Positions 2,367 to 36,628 of a DNA stretch of 39,407 nucleotides are shown in pieces (within the stretch, counting starts at the first letter, position 1; the number at the start of each line of letters is the position of its first letter). A model generated the notes under the pieces. That model searched no databases. It was not told the DNA's origin and saw only the letters and a program-made list of their open reading frames with translations. Origin of the DNA: Escherichia coli (GTDB lineage Bacteria > Pseudomonadota > Gammaproteobacteria > Enterobacterales > Enterobacteriaceae); NCBI RefSeq assembly GCF_016903815.1, contig NZ_CP069970.1; one strand, 5' to 3'. Position numbers and translations under genes: made by a program.

Positions 2367-4505
2367 TCAAGCGATACGGGCAACCGAGCTCTGGTTTGCT
2401 GCCGGTGGCAGGGCGATGAGCTTGTCACATTCCATAATCACGTACTCCGGGATGAGATCGAATCTGGACGGATCTAGTTGACAGATGAACTCATTTTCAA
2501 TGTGGTACGTTTCGTTAACGAATTTTCGTATTACCGGATGGTCCTGATCCAGTTCCAGTAAACGGAATACCTGCAGTTTTTCATAGCCGTTACGACAGCG
2601 ACGGTACAGGTTTTTTATTTCATCTGGGCTGCTGACGAGAGCCTGAAGTCGCGGGTAATCAAAACTGTCCACATACTCCCGGATATCCCGCAAGGCCTGC
2701 TGAATTTTCTCAGGAGCCATTTTGGGATAGCCCGAGCCCGCAGCGGCAGGCTCGCGATAATCCAGCGGGGCGACGCGTCGATGGAATAGATTGGATAGAA
2801 GCTGATAAGCATCACCACGTTCGTCAACGATTTCAAAGTAGCGACGAAGATAGATGAGCTTAATGATCTCCTCACAGTCTGCTGACGCGGTGATGGATTT
2901 GCAGATCTGCATGAATGTCATGATATCGCCGTCGTTAACAGGTAATTCTTCTATGACTCCAGCAGACAGGCGCAGGCAGGAGGCGGTCACCTGATTACTG
3001 AACAACCTTCTGACTGACTTCAGCGTGTCAATCACAGGCTCCACGTCATGCGTCAGCATAAGTACAGTCCGGTTCTTCAGGCATTCACCACTTGCACGTC
3101 TGAACAGCATTTCAAGAATGGCAAACTTCTTGTTTTTATCAAAAGAAGATATGGGATCATCAAGGATAATCAGTCCCGGGTTTTTTGACAGGCATTCATA
3201 CATGAATAACACAATCGCAAAGGCGTTCCGTTCTCCATAGCTGAGATGCTGGCTACCGCCGCTGACGTACCCGTCAAAATCTATGTGTCGTAGCCTGAGT
3301 TTTCTCTGCTCTCCCTCGCCGGCTATATCCACCCTGTATTTATAGCCTGCATAAGTGAGGAAATTATTGATGTTTGTTTTGTGCTGTGCGATCAGCCGGA
3401 TCATGCTGTCCCGGTGCCGGTTAATTTTTCCCTGCAGCGGTCCGGCAAGGTTTATCAGGTCCATAAGGGCCGCGTTCAGTCTGTCGGTGATCCCCTGCAT
3501 GAGTTCGGATTGCAGATCAGGGAAGAACTGCAGGTCAATCAACCTGGCAGTGAGCACCTCCCGAACGTTCTGCTGTTCCTGCAGGCTGAAAACATTCAGG
3601 CCTCTCAGCGCAGTGAGTTTCTCTGTCAGCGTATCGGTCTGGCGTTTCAACGCCACTAGGTACTCGATATGTTCGGCTTCCGGACCGTTCTGAAGCATAG
3701 TAATGGCCAGAAGGCGTTCTCTGGCGCTCTCCGTCAGGTAATTACCGAGGTTTTCCACCAGTCTGATGATAGCGGTCAGGTTTTTAATGGTGGATTTATC
3801 GTATTCCTCTCTGACTTGGCGAATTTGTGCTTCCTTTCCCGTGATATCACCGGTACAGAACGGACAGCAGCCATCCGAAAGGGGCGAAAACTCGAGTCCC
3901 TTTGTCTGCCAGTCAATCCATTCCACGCGGCGTTCACTGCGGATGTAGGGTTGATAGTTCTCAAGACCAGCCGGAATGTGGTGTATTTTATTTCCGCCTG
4001 ACAGACCTCTCATGCCGGTTGAAGAACGTGAAATCCCGGAACTGGTTGATTTGAAAGCATTACTGAGTTCCTGTAGATGGTCTATCAGAGAGTTCAGCTC
4101 AGTGTGATCCGTGAAAACAGCCCGGATCTTTTGCGTCATTTCTTCTATTTCACGCTCTCTTTCCGCATGGGCTTGATTGCGGATAAGAATATTAAAGCTG
4201 TCACTGATGAGCTCGTCCGGTTGGAACGTAAACTGACTGACGTACTCCTCGTTGAAGCACATCACGTCCCCAATCCCGTCAGCACCGATGACAATGGGCC
4301 CGGTGCTATCGGGGTTTTCTCCGCGCAGCCGGAAGGGCATCAGTGCCTGTAGTCCCTGAATGTCGTCCCGCGCCGCACAGCTTATGGCCCGTGACAGCGT
4401 ACTTTTTCCAGTACCATTTGGCGCAAACTTAATGTTCAGTTTATCGGCAGTGAGGGTGATATGTGCTCGTACGATGTTATTGCAGTGGCGTATTTCAATG
4501 TCCAT
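2367..4505 (-). CDS. ABC-type ATPase with coiled-coil zinc hook (AAA_13 family; RloC/PrrC-like candidate)
   Basis: 712 aa. Walker A FAPNGTGKST (aa 27-36), CCPFC zinc-hook-like motif inside a long predicted coiled-coil insert, ABC signature-like LSYGERN, Walker B LIILDDP, H-loop LTHD. C-terminal region has R-x3-E (LRRYFE) followed by His (LFHRR), reminiscent of the PrrC/RloC anticodon-nuclease triad. Confidence 0.6.
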   Translation of the reverse strand: MDIEIRHCNNIVRAHITLTADKLNIKFAPNGTGKSTLSRAISCAARDDIQGLQALMPFRLRGENPDSTGPIVIGADGIGDVMCFNEEYVSQFTFQPDELISDSFNILIRNQAHAEREREIEEMTQKIRAVFTDHTELNSLIDHLQELSNAFKSTSSGISRSSTGMRGLSGGNKIHHIPAGLENYQPYIRSERRVEWIDWQTKGLEFSPLSDGCCPFCTGDITGKEAQIRQVREEYDKSTIKNLTAIIRLVENLGNYLTESARERLLAITMLQNGPEAEHIEYLVALKRQTDTLTEKLTALRGLNVFSLQEQQNVREVLTARLIDLQFFPDLQSELMQGITDRLNAALMDLINLAGPLQGKINRHRDSMIRLIAQHKTNINNFLTYAGYKYRVDIAGEGEQRKLRLRHIDFDGYVSGGSQHLSYGERNAFAIVLFMYECLSKNPGLIILDDPISSFDKNKKFAILEMLFRRASGECLKNRTVLMLTHDVEPVIDTLKSVRRLFSNQVTASCLRLSAGVIEELPVNDGDIMTFMQICKSITASADCEEIIKLIYLRRYFEIVDERGDAYQLLSNLFHRRVAPLDYREPAAAGSGYPKMAPEKIQQALRDIREYVDSFDYPRLQALVSSPDEIKNLYRRCRNGYEKLQVFRLLELDQDHPVIRKFVNETYHIENEFICQLDPSRFDLIPEYVIMECDKLIALPPAANQSSVARIA

Positions 4506-4653
4506 TTATCTGTCCTTTGCCAGTTATTCCGGGGGGATTCATATCCTGCCGCAAAATGTGCCCGCATGCTGTGATGCAGATACATAATACATTTCGTTTA
4601 TACCATTGCTTACACCTCTCCGAGATGTTCATATCAGAAACAAAGATTAGGTC

Positions 4654-4679
4654 GATCCGACTTTTACTTTTTTCGGATC
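4654..4679. promoter_or_regulatory. inverted repeat GATCCGA-N12-TCGGATC in the divergent ATPase/NTase intergenic region
   Basis: Seen directly. Its right arm and T-run (TTTTTTCGGATCTC, ~4668-4681) recur nearly identically at ~1379-1392 upstream of vapB. Confidence 0.3.
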
Positions 4680-4969
4680 TCTGGAGAGGGGAAGAAGGAT
4701 TTGTGCTGATGATGCAATACTAATGATATATTTTGAACTTAATTGCATTATTGCTTATCTGGCATTAATAACTGAAATACTTTGCATAATTATCAATGAA
4801 AGAACGAGGCTCATATTTCCCATGTAAATTATATGCCCTTGCAGAGAGCGAGACGGTAGTGAACTTGCGGCACTAATAATAAACTGTACCGACTCTTCCC
4901 GGGCACTGGAATGTTCAGATGTACGACAGAGCCCCGCGCCTTTTGCAATAAATAATTAAAGGACTGAAC

Positions 4970-5965
4970 ATGGCGACCACAGTAATAGCTGCCTTTAACG
5001 AATTTATGAAAGATACCGTGAATCTCAAAAAGGCAGATACCGATGACGCGCGTGCAAGTCGCGACTGGCTTATCGGTAAGATGAATGATTTTGAGAAGGA
5101 CGATAAATTTCCGGTGAGTTTTCCAGCGATCCATATTGCCTTTGGCTCCTTTGCCAGAAGAACCAAAATCCGTCCGCTTGATGATATCGATCTGATGTTT
5201 GGCTTAACCGGGCAAGGTGCCACCTATACCATCCTGAGTGACCGGATAACTGTAACCTCCTCCGGAGAGGGGTCACGTCTGCACAGTTACCGCCATTCCG
5301 GAGCTGACACCGTCTGCTCCGTCAGAATTCTGAATGCCTTTAAAAACCGCCTGCAGGACATTGCCCAGTACGCCCAGGCTGATATCAGGCGTAACCAGGA
5401 AGCTGTCACGCTGAAACTGGTCAGCAAGGACTGGAATTTTGACATCGTCCCCTGCTTTATTACCAGCGAAGATGCCTTTGGACGGACTTACTACCTGATC
5501 CCCGATGGCAACGGCCACTGGAAGTTTACCGACCCCCGTAAAGACAGGGACAGAGTCACTACTATCAATGTGCAGAATAACGGCAATGTGCTCAATGTCA
5601 TCAGAGCAGTCAAATACTGGCAGCGGCGACCGACGATGCCATCCATGAGTTCCTACCTGCTGGAAACGCTGATTCTGGACTATTACGCTGGCAGGACATC
5701 CTGCTCATCGTTTGTTGACATGGAGCTGGAAGCGCTTTTCCGCCACCTTGGTCAATCCGTGCGGTACTCTGTCAACGATCCCAAAGGCATACAGGGTGAT
5801 ATCAACTCACTTTCAGCCGAGGCACGTAAGGCGATATCGGACAGATGTTATCTCGATGCGCAAAAGGTATCGGAGGCGAGATGGTTTGAAAATAATAAAG
5901 AGTATGAAAAATCCATCAATAAATGGCGCGATGTGTTCGGGCCATTCTTTCCTGTTTACGGGTGA
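4970..5965 (+). CDS. Pol-beta superfamily nucleotidyltransferase, SMODS / cGAS-DncV-like (CD-NTase-like)
   Basis: 331 aa. Active-site pattern G59-S60, then D72-x-D74 (HIAFGSFARRTKIRPLDDIDLMF), third Asp D158 in NFDIVPCF. Good SD (AAAGGA) before the ATG. Confidence 0.65.
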   Translation: MATTVIAAFNEFMKDTVNLKKADTDDARASRDWLIGKMNDFEKDDKFPVSFPAIHIAFGSFARRTKIRPLDDIDLMFGLTGQGATYTILSDRITVTSSGEGSRLHSYRHSGADTVCSVRILNAFKNRLQDIAQYAQADIRRNQEAVTLKLVSKDWNFDIVPCFITSEDAFGRTYYLIPDGNGHWKFTDPRKDRDRVTTINVQNNGNVLNVIRAVKYWQRRPTMPSMSSYLLETLILDYYAGRTSCSSFVDMELEALFRHLGQSVRYSVNDPKGIQGDINSLSAEARKAISDRCYLDAQKVSEARWFENNKEYEKSINKWRDVFGPFFPVYG

Positions 5966-5968
5966 ATC

Positions 5969-6901
5969 ATGAATGCCATTTACACAAACCAGTCGACCAG
6001 AGAAAACATGGATTTACTGTATGCGCAGGCCCGTGTCTACGACAGGGTAAAAAACTGGAACAGACTGAATTTTCTCTTCAGCATCATCGTACCGCTCCTG
6101 CTTTCTTTCGTTACCGTATACAACCGGAGCCGGGAATTTGTCGATTCAGAGTTGTTGTCTTCGCTGTTGGGGTTATATGGACTCCTGGTGCTTACCTTTA
6201 ACATTGTTATCAGTGGACACATCTCGGCTCTGCGCAGGAAGGCAGCCTCAATCCAGGAAATGTACGACTGCCGGGTACTTGGCATCCGGCGTAATGAACT
6301 GAAGGTGGAGGAGATCCCACGGGATGACATCATCCGGGAAGCTGCATATTTTAGAGACAGCCCGGAAAAAGCACGAAAGCGATTTGGCGAAGAGGGGTGG
6401 TACGTCAGTAAGGTGTATGACGCGCCGCAGGCCGTAATGGCGCTCCTTTGCCACGGAAAAAATCTCGGCTGGGACAAATCGCTCAGGGAGGTTCTGCACG
6501 TATTTTATCTTTCCGCTTTTATTGTCTCGCCTGTCGCGATGCTTGTTTACGGCATCGTCATGAAATCCGGGCTGAATGAGATCCTCTTCTATGTGGTGTT
6601 CACACTGCCGGTCATCCGCTATTTCTTGCTTCAGTTTCTGGATAATCGCAGCAGTATGAAAAGAAGCGAGAAGCTGAAAAAGTACGTTGAGAAGGAATTA
6701 TCCGGCATAAGGGTGTCCGGAAGGGCAGAAGAAGAGCAACTGGCTTATACGCTCCGGAATATCCAAGATGAGATGTTTACCTACCGGGCCTCATGTCCGC
6801 CCGTACCCAACGGTATTCAGCTGATAATGAAGCCCAAAAATGAACGAATTTATGTTGATTACTTTGAAACAAATCTGAAGGAGCTGCACCTTCAGAAGTA
6901 A
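5969..6901 (+). CDS. 4-TM membrane protein, putative effector partner of the nucleotidyltransferase
   Basis: 310 aa. ATG is 3 nt after the NTase stop, with an SD inside the NTase 3' end. Hydrophobic helices at ~aa 33-51 and 62-86, two more at ~175-225, a ~90-aa cytoplasmic insert and an ~80-aa C-terminal tail. Confidence 0.55.
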   Translation: MNAIYTNQSTRENMDLLYAQARVYDRVKNWNRLNFLFSIIVPLLLSFVTVYNRSREFVDSELLSSLLGLYGLLVLTFNIVISGHISALRRKAASIQEMYDCRVLGIRRNELKVEEIPRDDIIREAAYFRDSPEKARKRFGEEGWYVSKVYDAPQAVMALLCHGKNLGWDKSLREVLHVFYLSAFIVSPVAMLVYGIVMKSGLNEILFYVVFTLPVIRYFLLQFLDNRSSMKRSEKLKKYVEKELSGIRVSGRAEEEQLAYTLRNIQDEMFTYRASCPPVPNGIQLIMKPKNERIYVDYFETNLKELHLQK

Positions 6902-7037
6902 TCCCTCCTTAGCTCCGGTGTAGGATTTACGTATGCCGGAGCACATCCGATAAACAATTCTTGGTTGCCTGAGTGTCAGCGTAAACCCATAGTCACCTTC
7001 GCCTCAGACGGTTAGTAACACAGGTAATGACTCCAAC

Positions 7038-7541
7038 TTACTGATAGTGTTTTATGTTCAGATAATGCCCGATGACTTTGTCATGCAGCTCCACCGATTT
7101 TGAGAACGACAGCGACTTCCGTCCCAGCCGTGCCAGGTGCTGCCTCAGATTCAGGTTATGCCGCTCAATTCGCTGAGTGTAACGCTTGCTGATTACGTGC
7201 AGCTTTCCTTTCAGGCGGGATTCATACAGCGGCCAGCCATCCGTCATCCATATCACCACGTCAAAGGGTGACAGCAGGCTCATAAGACGCCCCAGCGTCG
7301 CCATAGTGCGTTCACCGAATACGTGCGCAACAACCGTCTTCCGGAGCCTGTCATACGCGTAAAACAGCCAGCGCTGGCGCGATTTAGCCCCGACGTATCC
7401 CCACTGTTCGTCCATTTCCGCGCAGACGATGACGTCACTGCCCGGCTGTATGCGCGAGGTTACCGACTGCAGCCTGAGTTTTTTAAGTGACGTAAAATCG
7501 TGTTGAGGCCAACGCCCATAATGCGGGCTGTTGCCCGGCAT
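7038..7541 (-). CDS. insB: IS1 InsB reading frame (expressed as the InsAB' frameshift fusion)
   Basis: Protein matches the IS1 transposase InsB; overlaps insA as in canonical IS1. Confidence 0.9.
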
Positions 7542-7735
7542 CCAACGCCATTCATGGCCATATCAATGATTTTCTGGTGCGTACCGGGTTGAGAAGCGGT
7601 GTAAGTGAACTGCAGTTGCCATGTTTTACGGCAGTGAGAGCAGAGATAGCGCTGATGTCCGGCAGTGCTTTTGCCGTTACGCACCACCCCGTCAGTAGCT
7701 GAACAGGAGGGACAGCTGATAGAAACAGAAGCCAC
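7460..7735 (-). CDS. insA: IS1 InsA
   Basis: [30 protein letters not shown]... matches IS1 InsA; GTG start. Confidence 0.9.
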
Positions 7736-7948
7736 AGGAGCACCTCAAAAACACCATCATACACTAAATCAGTAAGTTGGCAGCATCACCGGCATTCAAA
7801 ATCATTATGACCGCGATCTATTTCTGGCTGTTCTCTATCACTTTTGGCGGCATCGTCGCTCATGGGTAAGGGGAGTATATTAGCCATTTGGAACCCCACG
7901 GTCTCTTGCGGGTTTAATTAAGAACCCGCAAGAAAAATACGAATTGGG

Positions 7949-10900
7949 CTATATTTTTCCGCCTACGCCTTTAAACTTCTCAATAAACGAGACGATTTTC
8001 TGGAAAACTGCCTGTTTTTTCGTTTTATATTGCGGATTCAACGGACTAAGTTTTGGTAATGTCTCGTTTAATTCTGTGCCATTTTCGGTGGCGTATTCGC
8101 GTTTTAAAGACGTGCGAATATAGCGTTTTGCTGCATCTTCATTGAGATTTTCTTCTTTAATCAATGCTTCTGCTTCACGTAGCTGTTCGCGTTGAGCAAA
8201 CGTAAAGAATGCCTCAATGATACTGGCTTTGTCTGGTAAATCATCCAGGTTCGTTTGCTGAATAAAATCGACCACCAGGCCCTCTTTCGCCCGGTTCCCC
8301 AGGCTTGAACGAATTAAGCGTTTGACCTCTTCGATCATTTCGCCCTTGCCTTTATTTTGTCTGTTATGTTCGAAAATCAGTCCAAGGATATAATCCAGGT
8401 TTATTTCCTGAGACTTCAGCAAATCGACCTCAAAAACCACGTCATCCCAGTCAGTGGTTGATTTCTCTTTTTTATCAGCTTCTTTCTCGCGGCGCTGCCA
8501 GTCGCGAATATCGTTATAGGCAGAACGATAATCCTGAATCTTGCGATCAGCAGGGAGACGAATCGTTTGCAATTCAGCGAACTTTTCATCATCCACATAA
8601 TGTTCTGCTTTGAATTTTTCTACCTGCAACAGGATCGCTAAGATCGATTTGTTGCAGGGCTTTCAGCGTGGCAAATTCATCATAGTTTTGCAGGATGTTC
8701 TCGGTACGCAGGTATTCACCAAACAGTTTAACGAAGTCTTTCTTCTCTTTTTCACTTTCAATACTGGCAGGGTCAGGGAACCGTTGTTCCAGTTCTGCAA
8801 CTACTGCCATAAAGCCGCGCTTAGCTTCACCAGTAGCAGCATCAGTAAAGCCTTCCATATACTCTGCATAACTCTTTTCTAAAACTACATTTTTGGTGTT
8901 TTTGTCACCAAACAGCGTTATGGCATCAATAGTTGAGCGTTCCAGATCCCGGAAAGTGACGATATTACCGAAGGTTTTAGTGGCATCATAAATACGGTTG
9001 GTGCGGGAAAATGCCTGCATCAGGCCGTGAAAACGAAGGTTTTTATCGACGAATAGCGTGTTCAATGTTGGAGCATCGAAGCCAGTTAAGAACATCCCCA
9101 CGACAATTAGCAGATCGATATCCTGATTTTTAACCCGCTGGGCTAAATCACGATAGTAGTTCTGAAAACCGTTACTGTCGGTGCTGAAGTTAGTTTTAAA
9201 ATAGCTGTTATACTCACGAATTGCAGCGTCCAGAAACTCTTTAGCACTGCTGTCCATTGCGCTGGTATCAAAAGTTTCATCGGAAATCTCACCAATGGCA
9301 TTTTGTTCTTCATTAGCGGCAAAGGAGAAGATTGTCGCAATACGCAGCGGTTTATAGGTAGCCGATTTATTAGCGGCTTCCTCTTGTAACCGTTTAAACG
9401 TCGCATAATAGGCTTTCGCAGCATCCACGCTGCTCACTGCCAACATAGCATTAAAGCCTTTTGAGCCTGGGAAGGTACGGTGAGTTTTCTGGCGGAAGTT
9501 ATTCAGAATATATTGCGTAATTTCCTGTATACGCATGGGATGAAGAAACGCCTGCTGATTTTCAGCCGCACTCAGTTTTTTCTCGTCAGTTTCTGTCTCT
9601 AAAGACTTAAACTGTGGCCGCACATCGTTGTAGTCCACCTTGAATTTAAGCACTTTTTCATCACGAATCGCATCGGTAATTACATACGAATGCAATTCAC
9701 GACCAAATACGCTGGCGGTCGTTTCTGAGCCTAAGGCGTTTTCCGGGAAAATAGGGGTACCGGTAAAACCAAACTGATAATAGCGTTTGAATTTCTTCTT
9801 CAGGTTTTTCTGTGCTTCTCCAAACTGGCTGCGGTGGCATTCATCAAATATAAACACCACTTGCTGATTATATACAGACAGGTCGCTTTCTGCTTTCATC
9901 AGGTTATTGAGTTTCTGAATAGTAGTGACGATAATTTTGTTATCGTCCTTATCCAGATTTCGTTTAAGACCTGCGGTATTTTCCGATCCATTGACACTGT
10001 CTGGCGAAAAACGCTGATATTCCTTCATGGTCTGGTAATCGAGGTCTTTCCTGTCGACCACGAAGAAGACTTTATCAATAAAGTCCAGTTCTGTTGCCAG
10101 ACGCGCGGCTTTAAAGCTGGTCAGGGTTTTACCAGAACCGGTAGTGTGCCAGATAAAGCCACCACTTTCGGGGTTAGACCAGTTTTTCGCTTTATAGGAG
10201 CTGTTGATTTTCCATAAGATACGTTCAGTGGCGGCAATCTGGTACGGTCGCATCACCAGTAGCGTCTGGACTACTGTCAAAAACGCTGTAGTTCACCAGA
10301 ACATTCAGCAGAGTATGTTTCTGGAAAAAGGTAGCGGTAAAGTCTTTGAGGTCTTTAATCAGCGTGTTGTCTGATTTCGCCCAATTCATGGTGAAGTCAA
10401 AACTGTTTTTATCGCGCTTTGTCGTGTTGGCAAAATAACGGGTATCGGTGCCGTTAGAAATGACAAACAGTTGCAGATACTTAAACAGGGAATTTTCGCT
10501 GTTAAAACTCTCTTTACTGTAACGATGTATCTGGTTGAAAGCCTCACGAATCGCCACCCCGCGTTTTTTTAGTTCGATTTGCACCAGCGGTAAACCATTA
10601 ACCAGGATCGTGACGTCATAACGGTTAGCATGAGAACCCGTCTGTTCAAACTGCTGGATAATCTGCACCTTATTGCGCATGAGATTCTTTTTATCTATCA
10701 AATAGATGTTCTCAAGTCGCCCGTCGTCAAAAATAAAGTCGCAGATATAGTCGATATGGATTTTACGGGTTTTATCCAGAATACCATCGCTGGGGTTGTC
10801 CAGATACTGCTCCGTGAAGCGCCGCCACTCGCTGTCATTAAACATCACACCATTGAGGCTCTGAAGCTGTTCCCGAACATTAGACAGCATTGCCGACTGT

Positions 10901-11067
10901 GATTTTACGGAAATAAATTCATAACCCTGATTCCGCAGGTCCTGAATCAGTTCACGTTCCAGGTCCGATTCGCTCTGGTAGCTGTCGCTTGTTTGCTCAG
11001 CTTTGATGTACTTATCAAGGACGATAAAGTTATTGGATTCAGCAATGGTGTGTGTTTGATGAGTCAT
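7949..11067 (-). pseudogene. hsdR: type I restriction enzyme R subunit, split into three frames by two +1 frameshifts
   Basis: Three consecutive minus-strand ORFs in three frames (10225-11067, 8589-10280, 7949-8629) that together read as one ~1040-aa HsdR (N-terminal nuclease region, RPYQ-type helicase start, C-terminal domain). Frame changes coincide with A5/T5 runs at 10279-10283 and 8615-8619; removing one base at each restores a continuous frame. Confidence 0.7.
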
Positions 11068-11188: not shown

Positions 11189-12441
<1,253 letters not shown>

Positions 12442-12445
<4 letters not shown>

Positions 12446-14004
12446 TTCTGCACCTCGCAGCCTTCAATTTCAGCCACAATCGCATCAATATCTTTGCGCA
12501 ACTGGTCGATTTTGCTGACCGTGGTTTTCAGCTCAGCATTCAGCTCAGCGATATCGATAATTTCGCGAGTATCTTTCGCTTCCACATAGCTGCTCACCGA
12601 CAGGTTATAGTCATTCGCGACAACAGTCTCAAACGCAACAGATTTCGCCAGATGAGCAACATCTTCCTTGCTGGCAAATACCTGCATAATTTTTTCGATA
12701 TGGGCATCGGTCAGGATGTTGTTGTTAGTCTCTTTTTTGAACAGTTCGCTGGCGTCAATAAACTGAACTTTGGTATCCGTTTTATGTTTAGACAGAACCA
12801 GAATGTTTACGGCAATGGTGGTGCCAAAGAACAGGTTCGGAGCCAGTGAAATCACGGTTTCGACATAGTTATTATCGACCAGATACTGACGGATTTTCTG
12901 CTCCGCGCCGCCACGGTAAAAAATGCCTGGGAAGCAGACAATCGCAGCGCGACCTTTGGCCGAAAGATAGTTCAGCGCATGTAATACAAACGCAAAGTCA
13001 GCTTTGGATTTGGGGGCCAGAACGCCAGCCGGGGCAAAACGTTCATCGTTAATCAGCGTCGGGTCATCGCTGCCAATCCATTTCACCGAATACGGCGGGT
13101 TAGAAACGATGGCATCAAACGGTTTTTCATCTCTGAAGTGCGGCTCAGTCAGTGTATTACCCAGCTTGATATCAAACTTGTCGTAGTTGATGTTGTGCAA
13201 AAACATGTTCATACGCGCCAGGTTATAGGTCGTATGGTTGATTTCCTGACCAAAAAAACCTTCTTCGATGATATGGTCATCAAACTGTTTTTTAGCCTGC
13301 AACAACAGCGAACCGGAGCCTGCTGCCGGGTCGTAGATTTTGTTAACGTGGGTCTGCCCGTGCATAGCCAGTTGTGCAATCAGCTTAGAGACGTGCTGCG
13401 GTGTAAAGAACTCGCCGCCTGACTTACCGGCATTCGCCGCATAGTTAGAAATCAGGAACTCATAGGCGTCACCGAACAGGTCAATCTGATGTTCGTGGAA
13501 GTCACCAAGTTTTAACCCTTCAACCCCTTTCAGAACCGCAGCCAGGCGGGCATTTTTATCCTTAACGGTATTCCCCAGGCGGTTACTGGTTGTATCGAAA
13601 TCAGCAAACAAACCTTTGATGTCAGCTTCTGAAGGATAACCGTAAGCAGAACTTTCGATAGCAACGAAGATGCTGTTTAAATCCGCATTCAGTCTGTCAT
13701 TGGTATTTGCTTTCGCCGCTACGTTGCAGAAAAGCTGACTGGGGTAGATGAAGTAACCTTTGGTTTTGATGGCATCGTCTTTAATGTCATCAGTAATTAC
13801 GCTGTCATCCAGTTTCGCATAACAGATACTGTCATCACCGGCTTCAATATAGCTGGAAAAATTTTCGCTGATAAAACGGTAAAAAAGCGCGCCCAAAACG
13901 TACTGCTTAAAATCCCATCCATCGACTGAACCCCTGACATCGTTAGCAATTTGCCAGATCTGGCGATGAAGCTCTGCACGTTGTTGAATACTTGTCATTT
14001 TCAT
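12442..14004 (-). CDS. hsdM: type I restriction-modification N6-adenine DNA methyltransferase subunit
   Basis: 520 aa with SAM-binding motif [10 protein letters not shown] and catalytic NPPYS; N-terminus [25 protein letters not shown] is typical of HsdM. Confidence 0.9.
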
Positions 14005-19361: not shown

Positions 19362-19544
19362 TGTTTTTTAACTACCGATGTTACATTGAGCCTGACCTCT
19401 TGCGCCTTGAGGCATTTTCGGTTTATGCTTATCAGGCACCTCATTAAAACGGGTGCCGGGATTGGCCTCCCGCTTAAGTCTAAGGCGATACAGACGCCGC
19501 TCGCGTCTTTTTTTTGTATCGGCGTACACGCACACCTCTACAAT

Positions 19545-19624
19545 GGTGGGCTGTATGGGGCTACCTTCGGGTAGGCTGGTTACCTTGGACGCCAGTAAGG
19601 CCAACTCCGTACAGTCCACCGCCA
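19545..19624 (+). ncRNA. c4: C4-like antisense RNA (tRNA-like acceptor stem with 3' GCCA)
   Basis: 11-bp closing stem GGTGGGCTGTA (19545-19555) pairs with TACAGTCCACC (19610-19620) with one G-U, followed by GCCA. Internal UUCG-tetraloop hairpin CTACC-TTCG-GGTAG. Candidate -10 TACAAT at 19539-19544. Size ~77-80 nt. Internal boxes are complementary to repeated target boxes on both sides. Confidence 0.55.
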
Positions 19625-19628
19625 GCAA

Positions 19629-21049: not shown

Positions 21050-21901
21050 TTATTGCGCGCTTTCGGGGTTGTCGTTTACTGGCTGCCCCTTCTTGGTTTT
21101 ACGGCTGCGCGTAACTGATGCGGCTGACTTAACCTTTTTCTCTTCGCGAGTGATGGCAATTTGTTTTTTTACATTTTCAATATCTGCCAGGCGATATATT
21201 TTTGCTTGCGGCCAGCGGTCGCAGATGATCGGTTCTATGGAGTCATAAAGGCTAAATTTTGCTTTTTCGAATTCACCGTTGATGATAATTCCATCACGGA
21301 GAGTTTCATCGCAGATAAACACGCCACACAGTGGCACATGGTAACTAACTGATTTACCATCATTGTAGTTAGGGCTACTGGAAATGTAGTGGACGCGCAG
21401 CATTGTTTCGCTAAAGCCGTGTACGCGCATACGGAATTTTTCATCCTCCGGGTACTGCTTCATTAGCTCTTTTGTTGCTTCCAGGTTCTCTATGTATTTC
21501 GCACTGTGCTCATTGATCCCCGCGCTTTTTTGGATGCGAATGTCCTTATCAATCAGATGAATAATGCGGCCAGCGGTCATGTTGACGCTGTTCACAGCTT
21601 CTGTCTGATAAGTTGTAACCTTACGCACACCGCGAAGGATGTTAGGCACTGGATATAAAATAGTCTTTGGGATATTGAGGTCTGGGTACTGTTCCAGTTC
21701 CCGCGCCATTAAAGTCCATTTATCAATTTCAGCCTGAATGCTGTCAGTTTCTTTGAACGGTAGAACGACAACCGGGCGTACAGGACGACCGTCGCTGGCT
21801 GTATCAACGTGTTGGGCGCGTGCAACAGCTTTTTTTAGAAAGAGATCCCTGAAGCTGACGAACTCCTGGTACAGTTGTTCGCCGTAGACATAATTTATCA
21901 T
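21050..21901 (-). CDS. c1: C1 repressor of lysis (primary immunity repressor)
   Basis: 283 aa, MINYVYGEQLYQEFVSFRDLFLKKAVARAQ..., recognised as P1 C1. Confidence 0.95.
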   Translation of the reverse strand: MINYVYGEQLYQEFVSFRDLFLKKAVARAQHVDTASDGRPVRPVVVLPFKETDSIQAEIDKWTLMARELEQYPDLNIPKTILYPVPNILRGVRKVTTYQTEAVNSVNMTAGRIIHLIDKDIRIQKSAGINEHSAKYIENLEATKELMKQYPEDEKFRMRVHGFSETMLRVHYISSSPNYNDGKSVSYHVPLCGVFICDETLRDGIIINGEFEKAKFSLYDSIEPIICDRWPQAKIYRLADIENVKKQIAITREEKKVKSAASVTRSRKTKKGQPVNDNPESAQ

Positions 21902-23046: not shown

Positions 23047-24078
23047 ATGTCCAATTTACTGACCGTACACCAAAATTTGCCTGCATTACCGGTCGATGCA
23101 ACGAGTGATGAGGTTCGCAAGAACCTGATGGACATGTTCAGGGATCGCCAGGCGTTTTCTGAGCATACCTGGAAAATGCTTCTGTCCGTTTGCCGGTCGT
23201 GGGCGGCATGGTGCAAGTTGAATAACCGGAAATGGTTTCCCGCAGAACCTGAAGATGTTCGCGATTATCTTCTATATCTTCAGGCGCGCGGTCTGGCAGT
23301 AAAAACTATCCAGCAACATTTGGGCCAGCTAAACATGCTTCATCGTCGGTCCGGGCTGCCACGACCAAGTGACAGTAATGCTGTTTCACTGGTCATGCGA
23401 CGGATCCGAAAAGAAAACGTTGATGCCGGTGAACGTGCAAAACAGGCACTGGCGTTCGAACGCACTGATTTCGACCAGGTTCGTTCACTCATGGAAAATA
23501 GCGATCGCTGCCAGGATATACGTAATCTGGCATTTCTGGGGATTGCTTATAACACCCTATTACGTATAGCCGAAATTGCCAGGATCAGGGTTAAAGATAT
23601 CTCACGTACTGACGGTGGGAGAATGTTAATCCATATTGGCAGAACGAAAACGCTGGTTAGCACCGCAGGTGTAGAGAAGGCACTTAGCCTGGGGGTAACT
23701 AAACTGGTCGAGCGATGGATTTCTGTCTCTGGTGTGGCTGATGATCCGAATAACTACTTGTTTTGCCGTGTCAGAAAAAATGGTGTTGCCGCGCCATCTG
23801 CCACCAGCCAGCTATCAACTCGCGCCCTGGAAGGGATTTTTGAAGCAACTCATCGATTGATTTACGGCGCTAAGGATGACTCTGGTCAGAGATACCTGGC
23901 CTGGTCTGGACACAGTGCCCGTGTCGGAGCCGCGCGAGATATGGCCCGCGCCGGAGTTTCAATACCGGAGATCATGCAAGCTGGTGGCTGGACCAACGTA
24001 AATATTGTCATGAACTATATCCGTAACCTGGATAGTGAAACGGGGGCAATGGTGCGCCTGCTGGAAGATGGCGATTAG
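23047..24078 (+). CDS. cre: Cre site-specific tyrosine recombinase
   Basis: 343 aa, MSNLLTVHQNLPALPVDATSDEVRKNLMDMFRDRQAFSEHTWKMLLSVCRSWAAWCKLNN..., recognised as P1 Cre. Confidence 0.98.
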   Translation: MSNLLTVHQNLPALPVDATSDEVRKNLMDMFRDRQAFSEHTWKMLLSVCRSWAAWCKLNNRKWFPAEPEDVRDYLLYLQARGLAVKTIQQHLGQLNMLHRRSGLPRPSDSNAVSLVMRRIRKENVDAGERAKQALAFERTDFDQVRSLMENSDRCQDIRNLAFLGIAYNTLLRIAEIARIRVKDISRTDGGRMLIHIGRTKTLVSTAGVEKALSLGVTKLVERWISVSGVADDPNNYLFCRVRKNGVAAPSATSQLSTRALEGIFEATHRLIYGAKDDSGQRYLAWSGHSARVGAARDMARAGVSIPEIMQAGGWTNVNIVMNYIRNLDSETGAMVRLLEDGD

Positions 24079-26171: not shown

Positions 26172-27308
26172 ATGAAAGCAATGGGGAATGAAGTTTATCA
26201 AAGTCAAAAATGCAAGTTGAAATATTCAAAATCTCAAATTGATAGGGCTGCTCAATTGATAAGGCACGGGTGTAGTGACGAAGAAAGGCAGCAATCTATT
26301 GAAATGATACAAAATTTCCGTGAGCTGCATCTTTATCCATTAATGCTCATGAAAAATCATTTAGCAAGAGCAGCTGCTAAGGTTGACAAGGACAAAAAGA
26401 TTCTCGTTGCAAGAAGACTTAAGCGACTTTCTACCATAATAGATAAACTAGAGCGTCCTAGTCTTGATGGAGGCAGAACTAGCAATGCAATTAAATTAAC
26501 ACGGATGCAGGACGTTGGCGGATGTAGGGCCATTGTCAGAAACTTAGACCAGTTGATACAGCTAAAGGAACGTCTTTTAAAAAGCAAATCTGTTCATAGG
26601 ATTGTTAAAGAGTATGATTATCTTACTCCCAAAGACAGCGGCTATAGTGGAATCCACCTTGCATACAGTTGCTTCGATCAGAAAGAGGATCAATATCCGT
26701 GGCGAAAAACAAAGATTGAGATACAGTTAAGAACTCAATTGCAGCATGCTTGGGCTACCAGCCTTGAAATAATTGATACCCTTGAAGGTATCAAGCTGAA
26801 AACTTCAAGTGAAGGGCATCCAGAATGGAGACGATTTTTCTATCTAGCCGGATGTCTTGTAGCGCACGACGAAAAAGCCTGCACTCTTGATGAGCTAGTT
26901 GTATCTCAGTATGAAGGCGAGCTTAAAGAGCTGGAACGGACTTTATCTGTACGGAGGAAACTAAGCACATACACCATCGCCTTAAATTTAACTTCTGACG
27001 CGAATTTGATTAAGAAGTTGCCAAAAAATCATAAGGGGCATTACTTAGTAACAATGAGAAATGCAGAAAACAAGCCCAATACAAAAAACAAAAAAATGTT
27101 CCTAGTGTCTGTTCGCGCATTTAAAACAAAAGAAGCAGATGAAGCCCTTGAGGCCTTAAATAAAGACGATTCTAATCCTAATGTATTGATATCTGTTCTC
27201 GTTGCTACAGATAACATTAAGTCACTAAAAAAAGCCTACCCCAACTATTTTGGCTCAACAAACCAGTTTACAAAATTCTTAGATAAGCATCTTCGTAACG
27301 AAGGATAG
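26172..27308 (+). CDS. capRel: fused toxSAS (RelA/SpoT-like nucleotidyltransferase) with C-terminal extension; CapRel-like
   Basis: 378 aa. RelA/SpoT synthetase-fold motifs: DVGGCRAIV, DYLTPKDSGYSGIHL, IEIQLRTQLQHAWA. ~110-aa C-terminal extension without Cys. No separate small antitoxin ORF adjacent. AT-rich relative to flanks. Occupies the slot between the mat-position gene and lxc where P1 has res-mod. Confidence 0.7.
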   Translation: MKAMGNEVYQSQKCKLKYSKSQIDRAAQLIRHGCSDEERQQSIEMIQNFRELHLYPLMLMKNHLARAAAKVDKDKKILVARRLKRLSTIIDKLERPSLDGGRTSNAIKLTRMQDVGGCRAIVRNLDQLIQLKERLLKSKSVHRIVKEYDYLTPKDSGYSGIHLAYSCFDQKEDQYPWRKTKIEIQLRTQLQHAWATSLEIIDTLEGIKLKTSSEGHPEWRRFFYLAGCLVAHDEKACTLDELVVSQYEGELKELERTLSVRRKLSTYTIALNLTSDANLIKKLPKNHKGHYLVTMRNAENKPNTKNKKMFLVSVRAFKTKEADEALEALNKDDSNPNVLISVLVATDNIKSLKKAYPNYFGSTNQFTKFLDKHLRNEG

Positions 27309-28063: not shown

Positions 28064-31000
28064 TTATGCGTATTGTTGGATGACGGCCAGAACGTCCGCC
28101 ACGTTGTGTTTTGTCTCGATAATCCACCAGTTACCCGGGAAATCGCTGTTCTTCGCCTTCGCTGGCAGCCAGCGAGCGCCGAATTTCGCCTTGATTGCGT
28201 CTTTCGCACGGAAAAGAACGCCTTTCATGCCTGAGGCTTCCTGAAGCCCAAATACCTCGCCAGCGGCGAATTTTGGTGCGTACATCATCTTCAGGTCGGC
28301 GGTGGATACGCGATAATTCAGACCAAGAGACTGAGCTATGCTGGTGGCATCACCCTGTATTGATGATAACTCTTCTTGTTTCTCGTTTCTGGCGGCAATT
28401 TCTTCCTCCGTGATGTTGCCAAGGGCCAGGTTTATCCGATCAGCGTCGGCCTGTTTCTCTTCATCGGTGCGTCCGGCAAGAACCGTGTTAACTCTCTGCA
28501 ATATCTCCACATGATTCTTGCGCATGCTGAGCAATTCCGGCGTAACCTCGTTAAGATCCACCAGCCCAAGGATGGCAAGGTCGGAAAACATTGATACCAG
28601 GTTGTAGGTCATGCGATAGCTGAGTTGACCATAGGCTGATGGCAACTTCACCGCATCCATTTGATAGGCATCCATAAATTTAGAGCCGTCGTTTACGACA
28701 TCCGCAATTGCCGGTGTGATTTTTCCTGTGGTGGCGGCCTCCCTGATTGCTGTTACCCACGATTGAGTCAGCGCGGCGACTGCATGATTCAGATTGGCTT
28801 TCCGTTCTGCTGCAATGCGCGCACTTGCTGCGTCCATTGCCTGCTTGATCTCGTCTTTATTGCTGTAAATGCCAATGGTGCCAAACTGTGCTGTGGTGAT
28901 CTCATAATCTGACGCCCGGAACTCATGGGTACCGAAAATGGCATTGGTGACCTCAAGTTCAGAATCCCCGTTACGAGTAGCCCCCTGGCTTGTTTTCTCC
29001 GGCATTTTTGCGATCGCATCCGCTATTTTCTCCTGAATTGCTTCAGGGGATAGCGTATCTCCGTATGACGCGATTACATCGCCATAATTGGAGCCAAACA
29101 ATTCAACCAGGAATGTTTCTGCCGAACGGATCTGGCGGTTATTCCCTTCCGACATCATACCAAGCACCCATTTTGCAATTGACGACTTCAGCGCGCCGTC
29201 ACGGCGATCCGGGTAAACCGCATGCTTCAGTGGGTCCGTATAGGTGCCAACAAAATCAATGCTATAGCCTGACTCTGTAGTCTGAACGCCGTATGAGTCA
29301 GTGATTTTGATCATGCCGCGCTGCTGGAAACGGTAGAAATCGTCACAGGAAATGATGTCGTTAATCCCGGCGATGGAGACGCCACCACTGATTTTCTGCA
29401 TAACAGCATCTTCATCGGGAGTTACATCCACCTGTTTATCCAGCGTCTTCACATCCCAGTTACCCGATTTGGTGCCTTTGAAGGTAAAGATGATCTCCAC
29501 GTCTGCGCGCTGGCTGTCGAAGTCCAGCGACTTAATGCGAACGATATCACCGGCACAATCATAGTATTGGCCTACACGCCATGAGCGATCGCCGATAACA
29601 AGGAACTCATTCGCATGGTTAACCAGATCAGGATCAACATCCAGAATGCCTTTATTTATTGCATCCTCCACCAGCGGGCGCAGGCGTTTGATATCCGTCG
29701 CGGCCTTCTGAGTACGGTTCAATAATTTCTCATAGCGGGAGATGGCCTGAGAGATATTAGCCTTGCGCTGAATGGCGCTTTTCAACGACGCGCGATACTG
29801 TGCTAACAACATACGGTCTGTGTGATGGACGCTACCCCAGCGGGCTTTCCAGTCTGCGTTATCAGCTGCTTTGGCCATTACCGCCTGTTTGAATTTGGCG
29901 ACGTCGGCGGTGGTCTTTTCAAGTTCCGCTTTGCTTCGCTCCAATTCAGCGGTAAGTACCTCCACATCCTCACCAGCTGCGTGCTGCGCCTTGATGTAGT
30001 TCTGAAGGTCGATAGTAGCCTGTTCTTTCTGGCGAGCGCGTTTCGCAGCTTTCGCCTTATCCATTTGAACCTGCATCATTACCAGACGTTCGCCATCATC
30101 CTTAGCGGTATACATCTGCATTTCGATCATATCGTTGGCGTCGGCGTTCTCCATTTCTGACTTATCTGAACGGAGGATATCGGAGATCCAGCCTGCTTTA
30201 CGCTTCAGCGTCTTCAGTCGGTATTCATCGAAAGAACCCTTGCCGCAGTAGTAATGAACGCGAACGCTTGCACGGTTGGAGCCAACTCGAGCACCGCGAC
30301 CGTTACGCTGTGCGATACTGGCTGGTGTCCATGGCAACGTCAGATGATGGATGTCAGTCGTTCCTCGATGCAGGTTGATACCCACCTCTGCCTTTTTGTT
30401 GCAGATGATGATCGGAGTCCGGCCCTCCTGGAAGTCGGCTGCAATCTTTTCCAGACCGCCCAACGACATTTCATTTTGCTGCGCGATATAGGCGTCATAC
30501 AGAGCCATTTGCTCGTTGTATTTCGCTATCTGTGCATCTGTTGGTTCATCCGGTAACTCTTTCGGCGGTTTAACCGCTTTCAGTTTCTTACCGGTTTTAC
30601 CTGCCTCGGCAACCGTCTGAGCATTCAGGATCCCCACCTTTGAAGGTTCAAGGTTAAGAGCATTGCAGATAATGCGCTTGAGCTTCTGGTGCTGCGTTTT
30701 TTCGTCCGTGAAGATGATTTGCTTACCTTCCGGGAAAAACGCCTTCAGCGTGGCGATCAGCTTCGCGTATTTGGGTGTAACGGGGTGAGTTACGGTCTGT
30801 TCGTCAATGCCAAACTTGGCCAGGCGATTATTCACTTCCTGCTCAAATGCTTCCGGTACCTGCAACTGAATAAACTCGCCCTTATCTATCAGGGAGTATT
30901 GCGATTGCTGCGTGATCGAATCATCACTGTCGTCGTCTTCGCTGGTGGCTTGTTTAGGCAAACTGTCCGCCAGCTGCTGCACCGCATCGGCGTACTCCGG

Positions 31001-34831: not shown

Positions 34832-34897
34832 TGGTAATCCTTAACAAGTGACTAGTGTTAAATTCCGTTCAAACACGATGCGAATTATTCTAATTAA

Positions 34898-36628
<1,731 letters not shown>

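Follow-up and report, generated by a model that had tools for sequence, protein, structure and literature searches.

A SMODS and S-4TM gene pair on Escherichia coli plasmid DNA, very likely a two-gene type I CBASS operon of the EcCdnD12-4TM kind

Results

Gene layout and upstream region

The window, that is, the whole stretch of 39,407 nucleotides of E. coli DNA that was analysed, carries two co-oriented genes on its plus strand. The first (4970..5965) starts with ATG and encodes a CD-NTase (SMODS) cyclase of 331 aa, clade D-like and listed in RefSeq as WP_000246636.1. The second (5969..6901), also with an ATG start, encodes an S-4TM membrane effector of 310 aa (WP_000991832.1). The cyclase stop codon TGA at 5963-5965 is followed by ATC and then by the effector ATG at 5969, which gives a spacing of 3 nt. 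Both ORFs are intact and tightly coupled, and the coordinates and spacing given for them in the initial annotation were exact. The vapBC pair, ATPase and IS1 that it described beside the genes are all located at the flanks. On the left lie vapBC (1562-2205) and the ATPase (2367-4505), which is on the minus strand, divergent from the operon, corresponds to PADLOC PDC-S06 and has weak LmuB/SMC-like similarity; IS1 (7038-7735) lies on the right. The surrounding plasmid region is crowded with toxin-antitoxin modules, namely vapBC, ccdA and phd/doc. Among the operon neighbours there are no CBASS accessory genes of the Cap2/Cap3 (E1/E2/JAB), HORMA/TRIP13 or Cap6-8 types.

How far does the module extend? 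On pSLK172-2, at 34759-36690, lies an operon that agrees with the window pair in its two-gene architecture, in both gene lengths and in the 3-nt spacing, and its homology to the window begins abruptly at about 4660, where the mismatch rate changes from 0.70 (4400-4659) to 0.05 (4660-4969). A terminator-like hairpin at 4649-4663 forms the left edge of the shared region. By this homology, 4660..4969 on the plus strand would be an upstream leader/promoter region travelling with the operon. The flanks differ: in the window they hold the PDC-S06 ATPase and vapBC (left) and IS1 (right), in pSLK172-2 other genes. The module therefore consists of no more than the two genes and about 310 nt of upstream DNA. 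Within the upstream region, an AAGGA Shine-Dalgarno sequence stands 7 nt 5' of the cyclase ATG. No convincing sigma-70 promoter was found there, the best matches being weak (8/12) and a stricter scan giving zero. An operator search gave one imperfect inverted repeat of 10 nt, and an Rfam search gave no match near the operon.

The cyclase

The PADLOC model Cyclase PDLC00802 matches the first protein at full length (residues 1-331, 4.3e-152). The Pfam SMODS matches are weak taken alone (6.8e-7 and 1e-3), and the NCBIfam CBASS cyclase models score under their curated cut-offs (115 vs 200 bits). The catalytic residues lie where the initial annotation had put them: the GS motif G59-S60 in FGSF (codons at 5144..5149), the metal-binding motif D72-I73-D74 in LDDIDL (5183..5191) and the third catalytic Asp, D158 in NFDIV (5441..5443), all on the plus strand. 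Both residues of the GS motif, D72, D74 and D158 are invariant in 51 homologues with 52-92% identity, and the DxD motif aligns with the DIDIF motif of PaCdnD.

In a profile search of the PDB the best match was PaCdnD (6p82, 7.5e-23), and further CdnD and CdnC entries came next. Structure prediction, which the initial annotation had proposed for both proteins, gave for the cyclase an AF2 model of CD-NTase fold (pLDDT 91.6), for which the best Foldseek matches were PaCdnD (E 4.5e-16, TM 0.67-0.77) and EcCdnC. By profile and predicted fold together, the closest solved relatives are PaCdnD, EclCdnD, EcCdnC and the Cap10-CdnD complex, from clades D and C, which are close to each other; this fits the published label 'CdnD12'. 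On sequence and model, the enzyme looks like a clade D CD-NTase. PaCdnD, from the type III CBASS of P. aeruginosa ATCC27853 (6p82/6p8u/6p8j), shares with it the GS/DxD/D motifs and a C-terminal FGxxFP motif, but the identity is only 21-23%, and in the window cyclase the DxD strand is separated from the helix that follows by about 28 extra residues, predicted to be structured (aa ~80-118). The operons differ as well: HORMA/TRIP13 regulators and a NucC nuclease effector accompany PaCdnD, and the window operon has none of these.

Is the enzyme switched on by cleavage? EcCdnG and some clade D enzymes have a protease-cleaved activation loop (Hobbs & Kranzusch, PMC12991175), which occurs in only about 18% of clade D (PMC12991175). 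The ~30-aa disordered surface loop of the EcCdnG type is missing from the model of the window cyclase, in which aa 61-70 is the sole block with pLDDT <80. Since the model contains no long disordered loop, the cleaved-loop mechanism is probably inapplicable to this cyclase, and we rejected it.

The membrane effector

The initial annotation had stated that the second protein matched nothing nameable. This does not hold, for the protein belongs over its full length to Pfam S_4TM (PF18159) and is named by both RefSeq and PADLOC. The Pfam match (8.8e-47) aligns residues 2-293 with model positions 1-282 of 291; PADLOC Effector 4TM PDLC00717 covers residues 1-307 (1.1e-165), and all PADLOC effector matches of the protein are '4TM'. 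RefSeq calls it 'S-4TM family putative pore-forming effector', where 'pore-forming' is a prediction. NCBIfam gave no match. The other part of the description was borne out: S_4TM is the sole match in the Pfam scan, with no SAVED, CARF or other nucleotide-binding domain and no beta-barrel or SLATT domain, and the four transmembrane helices, the insert (89 aa, given as ~90) and the tail (85 aa, given as ~80) are all present.

A hydropathy scan places the four transmembrane segments at aa ~31-53, 62-85, 175-200 and 203-225. The first two form the TM1-TM2 hairpin (6059..6223), inside the model helices H11-55 and H60-104, and the last two the TM3-TM4 hairpin (6491..6643, aa ~175-197 and ~203-225), which is seen by hydropathy and in the AF2 model. 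Between them lies the insert (aa ~86-174, 6224..6490), and a C-terminal helical tail (aa ~226-310, 6644..6898), defined by the alignment and the model, follows; all are on the plus strand. Because the K/R-rich stretches, aa 85-175 with 18 K/R and aa 228-310 with 15, fall in the insert and the tail, the sequence fits an N-in/C-in topology with both of these parts in the cytoplasm.

In an alignment of 126 S-4TM sequences, conservation is concentrated in these putative cytoplasmic parts, and P214 is the sole conserved residue of a transmembrane helix. Most of the conserved residues are in the insert (Q96, E97, D100, W144, Y145, C161, N165, D169 and R173), with R263, Q266 and R273 in the tail; D100, W144, Y145, Q266 and R273 are invariant. 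The AF2 model of the effector (pLDDT 95, pTM 0.91) is all-helical, and its four transmembrane helices extend into a cytoplasmic bundle. Comparison with PDB chains, by single sequence and by the 126-sequence profile, gave nothing meaningful, and the model found no structural relative among solved structures. The family comprises 1098 cluster representatives of similar length. For distant homologues (22-35% identity), a SMODS gene was directly adjacent on the same strand in all three examined, in either order.

A nearly identical operon in E. coli SLK172

The cyclase is identical to its pSLK172-2 counterpart (WP_000246635) at 330 of 331 aa (L19I), and the effector at 307 of 310 aa (M14L, V209M, A259G). 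Strain SLK172 is given as the origin of EcCdnD12-4TM, an operon of clade D (Richmond-Buccola et al., Cell Host Microbe 2024; bioRxiv 10.1101/2023.05.21.541620). From the strain name, the clade and the effector type, we infer that the published construct is the pSLK172-2 locus. EcCdnD12-4TM restricts phages of five families at least 10^4-fold, and a DDAA mutant of its two catalytic Asp is neither toxic nor defensive (bioRxiv 10.1101/2023.05.21.541620). Its trigger is the non-enzymatic scaffold domain of a T1-like phage prohead protease, co-expression of which is toxic; over-expression of the operon delays growth, and no in vitro synthesis by EcCdnD12 was seen, with or without phage proteins (bioRxiv 10.1101/2023.05.21.541620). 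An operon of about 99% identity has thus, in all probability, already proved able to block many phages. The accession WP_000246636 itself was not mentioned in a full-text literature search. A 'CdnD12' in the E2-CBASS preprint was considered as the window enzyme and rejected, as the string is EcCdnD followed by the superscript reference number 12.

Distribution of the operon

The operon is plasmid-borne in 635 of 5,426 complete E. coli genomes (~12%), and 1029 of its 1044 places in E. coli are on plasmids. In PLSDB, 812 plasmids carry it, most of them conjugative. A search of 50,697 phage records gave no match to it, and so it is to be regarded as plasmid cargo and not as part of the adjacent P1-like segment. 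Few plasmid-borne defence modules in Enterobacteriaceae are as widespread as this operon.

Discussion

What kind of system does the gene pair encode? The initial annotation had left two options, type I CBASS with a SLATT or S-4TM effector and a Hailong-type pair, and had held that sequence could not decide between them. PADLOC, Pfam and the PDB relatives confirm type I CBASS with S-4TM and speak against Hailong and SLATT. The HMM searches that it proposed returned SMODS and S_4TM in Pfam, and a CBASS cyclase and a 4TM effector in PADLOC, both at full length. The cyclase has an intact GS...DxD...D active site, the adjacent co-oriented gene encodes a recognised effector (S_4TM) with four transmembrane helices, a full-length PF18159 match and an association with SMODS genes, and the operon has no accessory genes. 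We therefore regard it, with high confidence, as a two-gene type I CBASS of essentially the same allele family as EcCdnD12-4TM, situated on IncF-type accessory plasmid DNA. Type I CBASS is chosen over Hailong because of the full-length PADLOC pair, the Pfam combination of SMODS and S_4TM, and the clade D/C relatives of the CD-NTase. As a two-gene anti-phage system in Pfam, PADLOC and RefSeq, it is already known.

Could the pair nevertheless be a guard of the Hailong type? The NTase would then constitutively make a short DNA signal that closes a channel, and phage nucleases would release the channel. The two-gene layout is superficially equal, an NTase with a growth-arresting membrane protein that has no recognisable sensor domain. 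HalB reportedly primes DNA synthesis on its C-terminal Tyr, and the window cyclase ends in ...FPVYG, with a Tyr beside the C-terminus; however, several homologues have Phe in place of this Y330 (FPEFG, FPVFG, FPRFG), which an essential priming hydroxyl would not allow. In Hailong, which consists of the HalA channel and the HalB NTase, the signal represses the effector (Tan et al., Nature 2025, as summarised in PMC13276650). This regulatory logic is opposite to that of CBASS, and a repressor signal would predict the opposite of the non-toxic, non-defensive DDAA mutant of the ~99% identical operon. Both window proteins match CBASS models at full length, the neighbours of the NTase in the PDB, whether by sequence or by fold, are without exception CD-NTases or cGAS, and no solved membrane protein resembles the 4TM model. 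Neither a HalB-type NTase (none in 15 profile matches or the top 50 of Foldseek) nor a HalA-type channel with a DNA-binding crown domain was recognised, and no sequence or fold similarity to Hailong was detectable, in PDB copies that may not include HalA/HalB. The Hailong reading is thus very improbable.

Slightly less improbable, but still unlikely indeed, is that the operon mainly serves plasmid maintenance or inter-plasmid competition as an addiction-like toxic module. It is almost exclusively plasmid-borne, mostly on conjugative plasmids, it sits in a region packed with toxin-antitoxin modules, and over-expression of its near-identical counterpart delays growth. But defence systems commonly cluster with such modules on plasmids, so location does not discriminate. 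Moreover, the operon has no antitoxin-like partner, and the near-identical operon strongly restricts phages, and its toxicity depends on a phage protein as well as on the active site of the cyclase. The pair might also be a non-signalling NTase (antibiotic NTase, AbiEii or MNT-type toxin) beside an unrelated housekeeping transporter, as the weak SMODS matches and the NCBIfam scores below cut-off would allow. The initial annotation had said that profile placement of the proteins in such families would count against its own reading. No antibiotic-NTase, AbiEii or transporter family appeared in the Pfam, NCBIfam or PADLOC results, and the full-length PADLOC CBASS matches, the CD-NTase fold and the conserved SMODS/S-4TM pairing contradict this possibility, which has almost no probability left.

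How would the type I CBASS operon work? The clade D-type CD-NTase would be inactive in uninfected cells and would be switched on late in infection by a cue from phage virion assembly. Judging from the published operon that is nearly identical, a T1-like prohead protease may provide a sufficient cue with its scaffold domain. EcCdnG, too, is a CBASS cyclase for which genetics links activation to the prohead protease gene of the phage; the difference is that the EcCdnD12 trigger is a non-enzymatic scaffold domain and not cleavage of a loop. The GS/DxD/D active site would then make a nucleotide second messenger, to be sensed by the co-translated S-4TM protein in the inner membrane, presumably at its conserved all-helical cytoplasmic module built from the extensions of the four transmembrane helices, the N-terminal helix and the C-terminal tail. 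In response, S-4TM would compromise the inner membrane, and growth would stop or the cell would die before progeny release. What we infer in this scheme is which signal is made, where S-4TM binds it, and that the cell is killed by disruption of its membrane.

The presumed end point, damage to the inner membrane after nucleotide signalling, is shared with Cap15 beta-barrel-TM, 2TM-SAVED and SLATT effectors, which like S-4TM are common partners of type I cyclases. S-4TM differs from them in being all-helical, with no SAVED, beta-barrel or SLATT domain. A biochemical mechanism or structure of S-4TM was not found in the PDB or the literature searched, nor in that literature an experiment showing nucleotide binding or membrane permeabilisation by it. 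S-4TM may be an undescribed kind of nucleotide-gated membrane protein, whose sensor is an all-helical cytoplasmic bundle with no solved relative; we offer this as a tentative reading, somewhat short of an even chance. The putative sensor may comprise the transmembrane-helix extensions and the N- and C-terminal helices, with K28, Q96/E97/D100, W144-Y145, N165/D169/R173 and R263/Q266/R273 conserved. This reading concerns the entire named S-4TM family, and it gains nothing new from the locus itself.

The initial annotation had ranked the second protein first in the window as a candidate for an uncharacterised effector. This view is not supported, as the family is catalogued and a ~99% identical operon lies in the strain from which the experimentally validated EcCdnD12-4TM came; it holds only in a narrower sense, in that the mechanism and structure are absent from the sources just named. 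As a published screen of type I CBASS relied heavily on an essentially identical operon, the locus has little discovery value. Its interest is narrower and concerns the biochemistry of the S-4TM effector and the signal of EcCdnD12; for the former, the confident monomer model with its map of conserved cytoplasmic residues offers concrete targets for mutagenesis. What is more, the operon is carried along by clinically important resistance plasmids of the IncF type, with a possible influence on host range in phage therapy.

A two-gene type I CBASS operon

Both open reading frames reported by the initial annotation are present exactly where it placed them on the plus strand. The cyclase gene (4970..5965, 331 aa) is preceded by an AAGGA Shine-Dalgarno signal, and its stop codon TGA (5963-5965) is followed by ATC and then by the ATG at 5969 of the effector gene (5969..6901, 310 aa), leaving a gap of 3 bases. 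No Cap2/Cap3, HORMA/TRIP13 or other accessory genes were found among the genes beside the operon, and this layout is a type I architecture in the sense of Richmond-Buccola et al.

What do the two genes encode? Profile searches and structure prediction had been proposed as checks. The first protein (RefSeq WP_000246636.1, 'SMODS domain-containing nucleotidyltransferase') matches the CBASS oligonucleotide-cyclase model PDLC00802 of PADLOC over its full length (4.3e-152) and the Pfam family SMODS (PF18144) in two pieces (6.8e-7 and 1e-3); NCBIfam CBASS cyclase models also match it, with scores under their curated cut-offs. The nucleotidyltransferase motifs G59-S60, D72-x-D74 and D158 were read correctly, and they are invariant in 51 aligned homologues (52-92% identity). 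A PDB sequence search with the cyclase and its family profile returned CD-NTases only: P. aeruginosa CdnD at the top (7.5e-23), and also the unnamed CD-NTase 9sa4/9sa5, E. cloacae and Salmonella CdnD, E. coli CdnC and Cap10-bound CdnD. The AlphaFold2 model (pLDDT 91.6) has the CD-NTase fold, and Foldseek gave the same ranking, with PaCdnD (E 4.5e-16, TM 0.67-0.77) followed by CdnC/CdnD and then by cGAS, CdnB and DncV.

The second protein matches the CBASS '4TM' effector model PDLC00717 of PADLOC over its full length (1.1e-165) and Pfam S_4TM (PF18159, 8.8e-47, residues 2-293 on a model of 291 positions). The statement that it resembles nothing nameable is therefore corrected: it is a full-length member of the S-4TM family, and is so named in RefSeq (WP_000991832.1, 'S-4TM family putative pore-forming effector'). 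The Pfam scan detected no SAVED, CARF, SLATT or transporter family in it, in agreement with the initial annotation as to SAVED and CARF. From the PADLOC, Pfam, PDB sequence and Foldseek matches, it follows that protein 1 is a true CD-NTase from the neighbourhood of clades D and C, and protein 2 an S-4TM family member. These identities exclude the pairing of an antibiotic NTase or AbiEii-like protein with a housekeeping transporter.

Features of the S-4TM effector

Four hydrophobic segments (about aa 31-53, 62-85, 175-200 and 203-225) are found in the effector, with an 89-aa insert and an 85-aa tail, much as first described. The short loops between segments hold few charges while insert and tail are rich in K/R, a distribution consistent with an N-in/C-in protein in which both are predicted to be cytoplasmic. 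The AlphaFold2 model (pLDDT 95, pTM 0.91) is helical throughout. Four long helices (11-55, 60-104, 154-197 and 213-250) cross the membrane and extend into the cytoplasm, where short helices 118-139 and, from the C-terminus, helices 255-275 and 281-305 pack against them. PDB sequence and fold searches gave no solved relative of this fold.

Conservation was read from 126 family members with a mean column identity of 30%. Invariant or nearly so are Q8, A19, Y24, K28, Q96, E97, D100, W144, Y145, C161, N165, D169, R173, P214, R263, Q266 and R273; according to this alignment and the hydropathy topology, P214 is the only one outside the cytoplasmic parts. Judged from alignment columns alone, the conserved aromatic pair and several Arg/Lys would supply what a candidate nucleotide pocket needs. 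The cyclase appears much better conserved than the effector, in sets that were sampled differently and are unpaired by genome: identity to the window cyclase is still 52-55% in homologues from Clostridium, Ignavibacteriales and Flavobacteriales, while most of the diverse S-4TM representatives (50%-identity clusters) share only 22-30% with their query.

Relation to EcCdnD12-4TM and to Hailong

When type I CBASS operons were screened for phage restriction, EcCdnD12-4TM of E. coli SLK172, which encodes a clade D CD-NTase, restricted phages of all five families tested by at least 10,000-fold, an effect abolished by the DDAA mutation of the two catalytic Asp (Richmond-Buccola et al., bioRxiv 10.1101/2023.05.21.541620). 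CBASS-dependent toxicity followed when the scaffold domain (T222-M370) of the Bas13 prohead protease was co-expressed, and the escape substitution T361P relieved it; with purified EcCdnD12, no nucleotide synthesis was seen in vitro, whether or not phage proteins were added (bioRxiv 10.1101/2023.05.21.541620). The SLK172 plasmid pSLK172-2 (NZ_CP017633) carries at 34759-36690 a SMODS and S-4TM operon with the same gene lengths and spacing as in the window, and the proteins are identical at 330/331 (cyclase) and 307/310 (effector) residues. Strain, clade and effector type argue strongly that EcCdnD12-4TM represents the operon family of the window, which has very probably been tested experimentally already. 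As a type I CBASS with a clade D-like cyclase and an S-4TM effector, the locus is already catalogued.

The initial annotation had left two readings, CBASS with a membrane effector or a Hailong-type pair, and the former stands. In Hailong, as summarised in PMC13276650, the NTase HalB constitutively makes short DNA that keeps the channel HalA closed, a mechanism that the bare pairing of an NTase with a membrane protein had suggested here. Four points argue against it. Both window proteins are full-length members of CBASS families in PADLOC; no HalB- or HalA-like entry is among the PDB sequence or fold matches, in PDB copies that may not include HalA/HalB; and several cyclase homologues have Phe in place of the Tyr close to the C-terminus (Y330). 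Moreover, a pair whose signal represses the effector should become toxic once that signal is lost, whereas the DDAA mutant of the near-identical published operon is non-toxic (bioRxiv 10.1101/2023.05.21.541620).

For type I CBASS there is a further question: how is the cyclase switched on? Some CD-NTases have a protease-cleaved activation loop, which the majority of clade D enzymes lack (Hobbs & Kranzusch, PMC12991175). Unlike the EcCdnG-type enzymes with this loop, the cyclase is modelled without a long disordered surface loop, the dip in confidence being confined to aa 61-70 (about pLDDT 59), so it probably belongs to the clade D majority. This agrees with a non-enzymatic scaffold domain as the published trigger.

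Distribution and genomic setting

A megablast of 4500-6950 (at least 80% cover) found the operon in 635 of 5,426 complete E. coli genomes, and 1029 of its 1044 places there are on plasmids. PLSDB has it on 812 plasmids with at least 80% cover; matches by genus were Escherichia 614, Salmonella 165 and Klebsiella 98, plus others, and 741 of all 959 matching records are predicted conjugative. It was not found in the phage collection searched.

Compared with pSLK172-2, homology begins abruptly near 4660 and spans both genes up to IS1; the leader (310 nt) has diverged by 5% and the genes by 0.4-1%, and the flanking DNA is unrelated. These sharp limits define the unit as the two genes with their leader (about 310 nt). 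The SMODS/S-4TM pairing is itself a conserved feature of the S-4TM family: in three of three distant homologues (22-35% identity; metagenomes and one genome) a SMODS gene directly adjoins S-4TM on the same strand, in either order. E. coli plasmid NZ_LS992186.1 (8550-10243) illustrates how an IS element can disrupt or re-wire the operon leader: there a second IS1 has entered directly upstream of the cyclase gene, whose annotated length is 960 bp, 12 codons less.

The divergent 712-aa ABC/SMC-like ATPase at 2367-4505 (minus strand), transcribed away from the operon, is just 'AAA family ATPase' in RefSeq; it matches the PADLOC candidate family PDC-S06 over its full length (3e-286) and has weak LmuB-like similarity. 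Since it does not adjoin CBASS in pSLK172-2, it is a separate single-gene candidate defence system, and together with vapBC it is separate cargo outside the CBASS unit. As first described, all three lie on the same side of IS1 (7023-7790; InsA/InsB ORFs 7038-7735), which sits exactly at the junction of a mosaic, with IncF-type accessory DNA to its left and P1-like phage-plasmid DNA to its right. From 7790 onward the DNA is 99.7% identical to P1-like plasmids of about 96 kb, and the IS1-hsdRSM-phd/doc junction is common to many IncF plasmids.

The P1-like segment contains hsdRSM, phd/doc, C4 and isrK RNAs, c1, a tyrosine recombinase and a 2255-aa ORF. Relative to the intact 3117-bp copy of NZ_CP023845, hsdR (type I restriction; 7949-11067, minus strand) is split into three ORFs by two 1-nt insertions (near 8624 and 10270), with 64 mismatches otherwise, so that it is a pseudogene unless the assembly is wrong here; hsdS and hsdM (11189-14004) appear intact. 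Features of P1-type immunity and recombination are the isrK-like sRNA and C4 antisense RNA (19436-19626, plus strand; 61 and 76 bits in Rfam), the C1 repressor (21050-21901, minus; NCBIfam 1.6e-183), the 343-aa recombinase (23047-24078, plus) and the 2255-aa ORF (28064-34831, minus), the last two having the sizes of P1 Cre and DarB. A 378-aa RelA/SpoT-like protein (26172-27308, plus; GTP diphosphokinase region 8e-9) matches the PADLOC candidate family PDC-S33 (6.7e-86), and may represent a fused toxin-antitoxin defence gene of CapRel type in this segment. For the 375-aa TnpB/Cas12f-like ORF (36661-37791, minus; PADLOC Cas12f models 7e-65), a TnpB of the IS200/IS605 family is the most likely identity, ahead of a CRISPR effector.

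Proposed mechanism

Between them, this analysis and the work cited show a cyclase that needs its active site, an effector in the membrane and a trigger linked to the late assembly of virions. In the scenario we propose, the cyclase would make a diffusible nucleotide signal; its closest characterised relatives make cyclic trinucleotides. S-4TM may bind this signal through its cytoplasmic part and would in turn damage the inner membrane. The 4-TM protein had been ranked as the best candidate in the window for an uncharacterised effector, a view that the catalogued status of the locus does not support.
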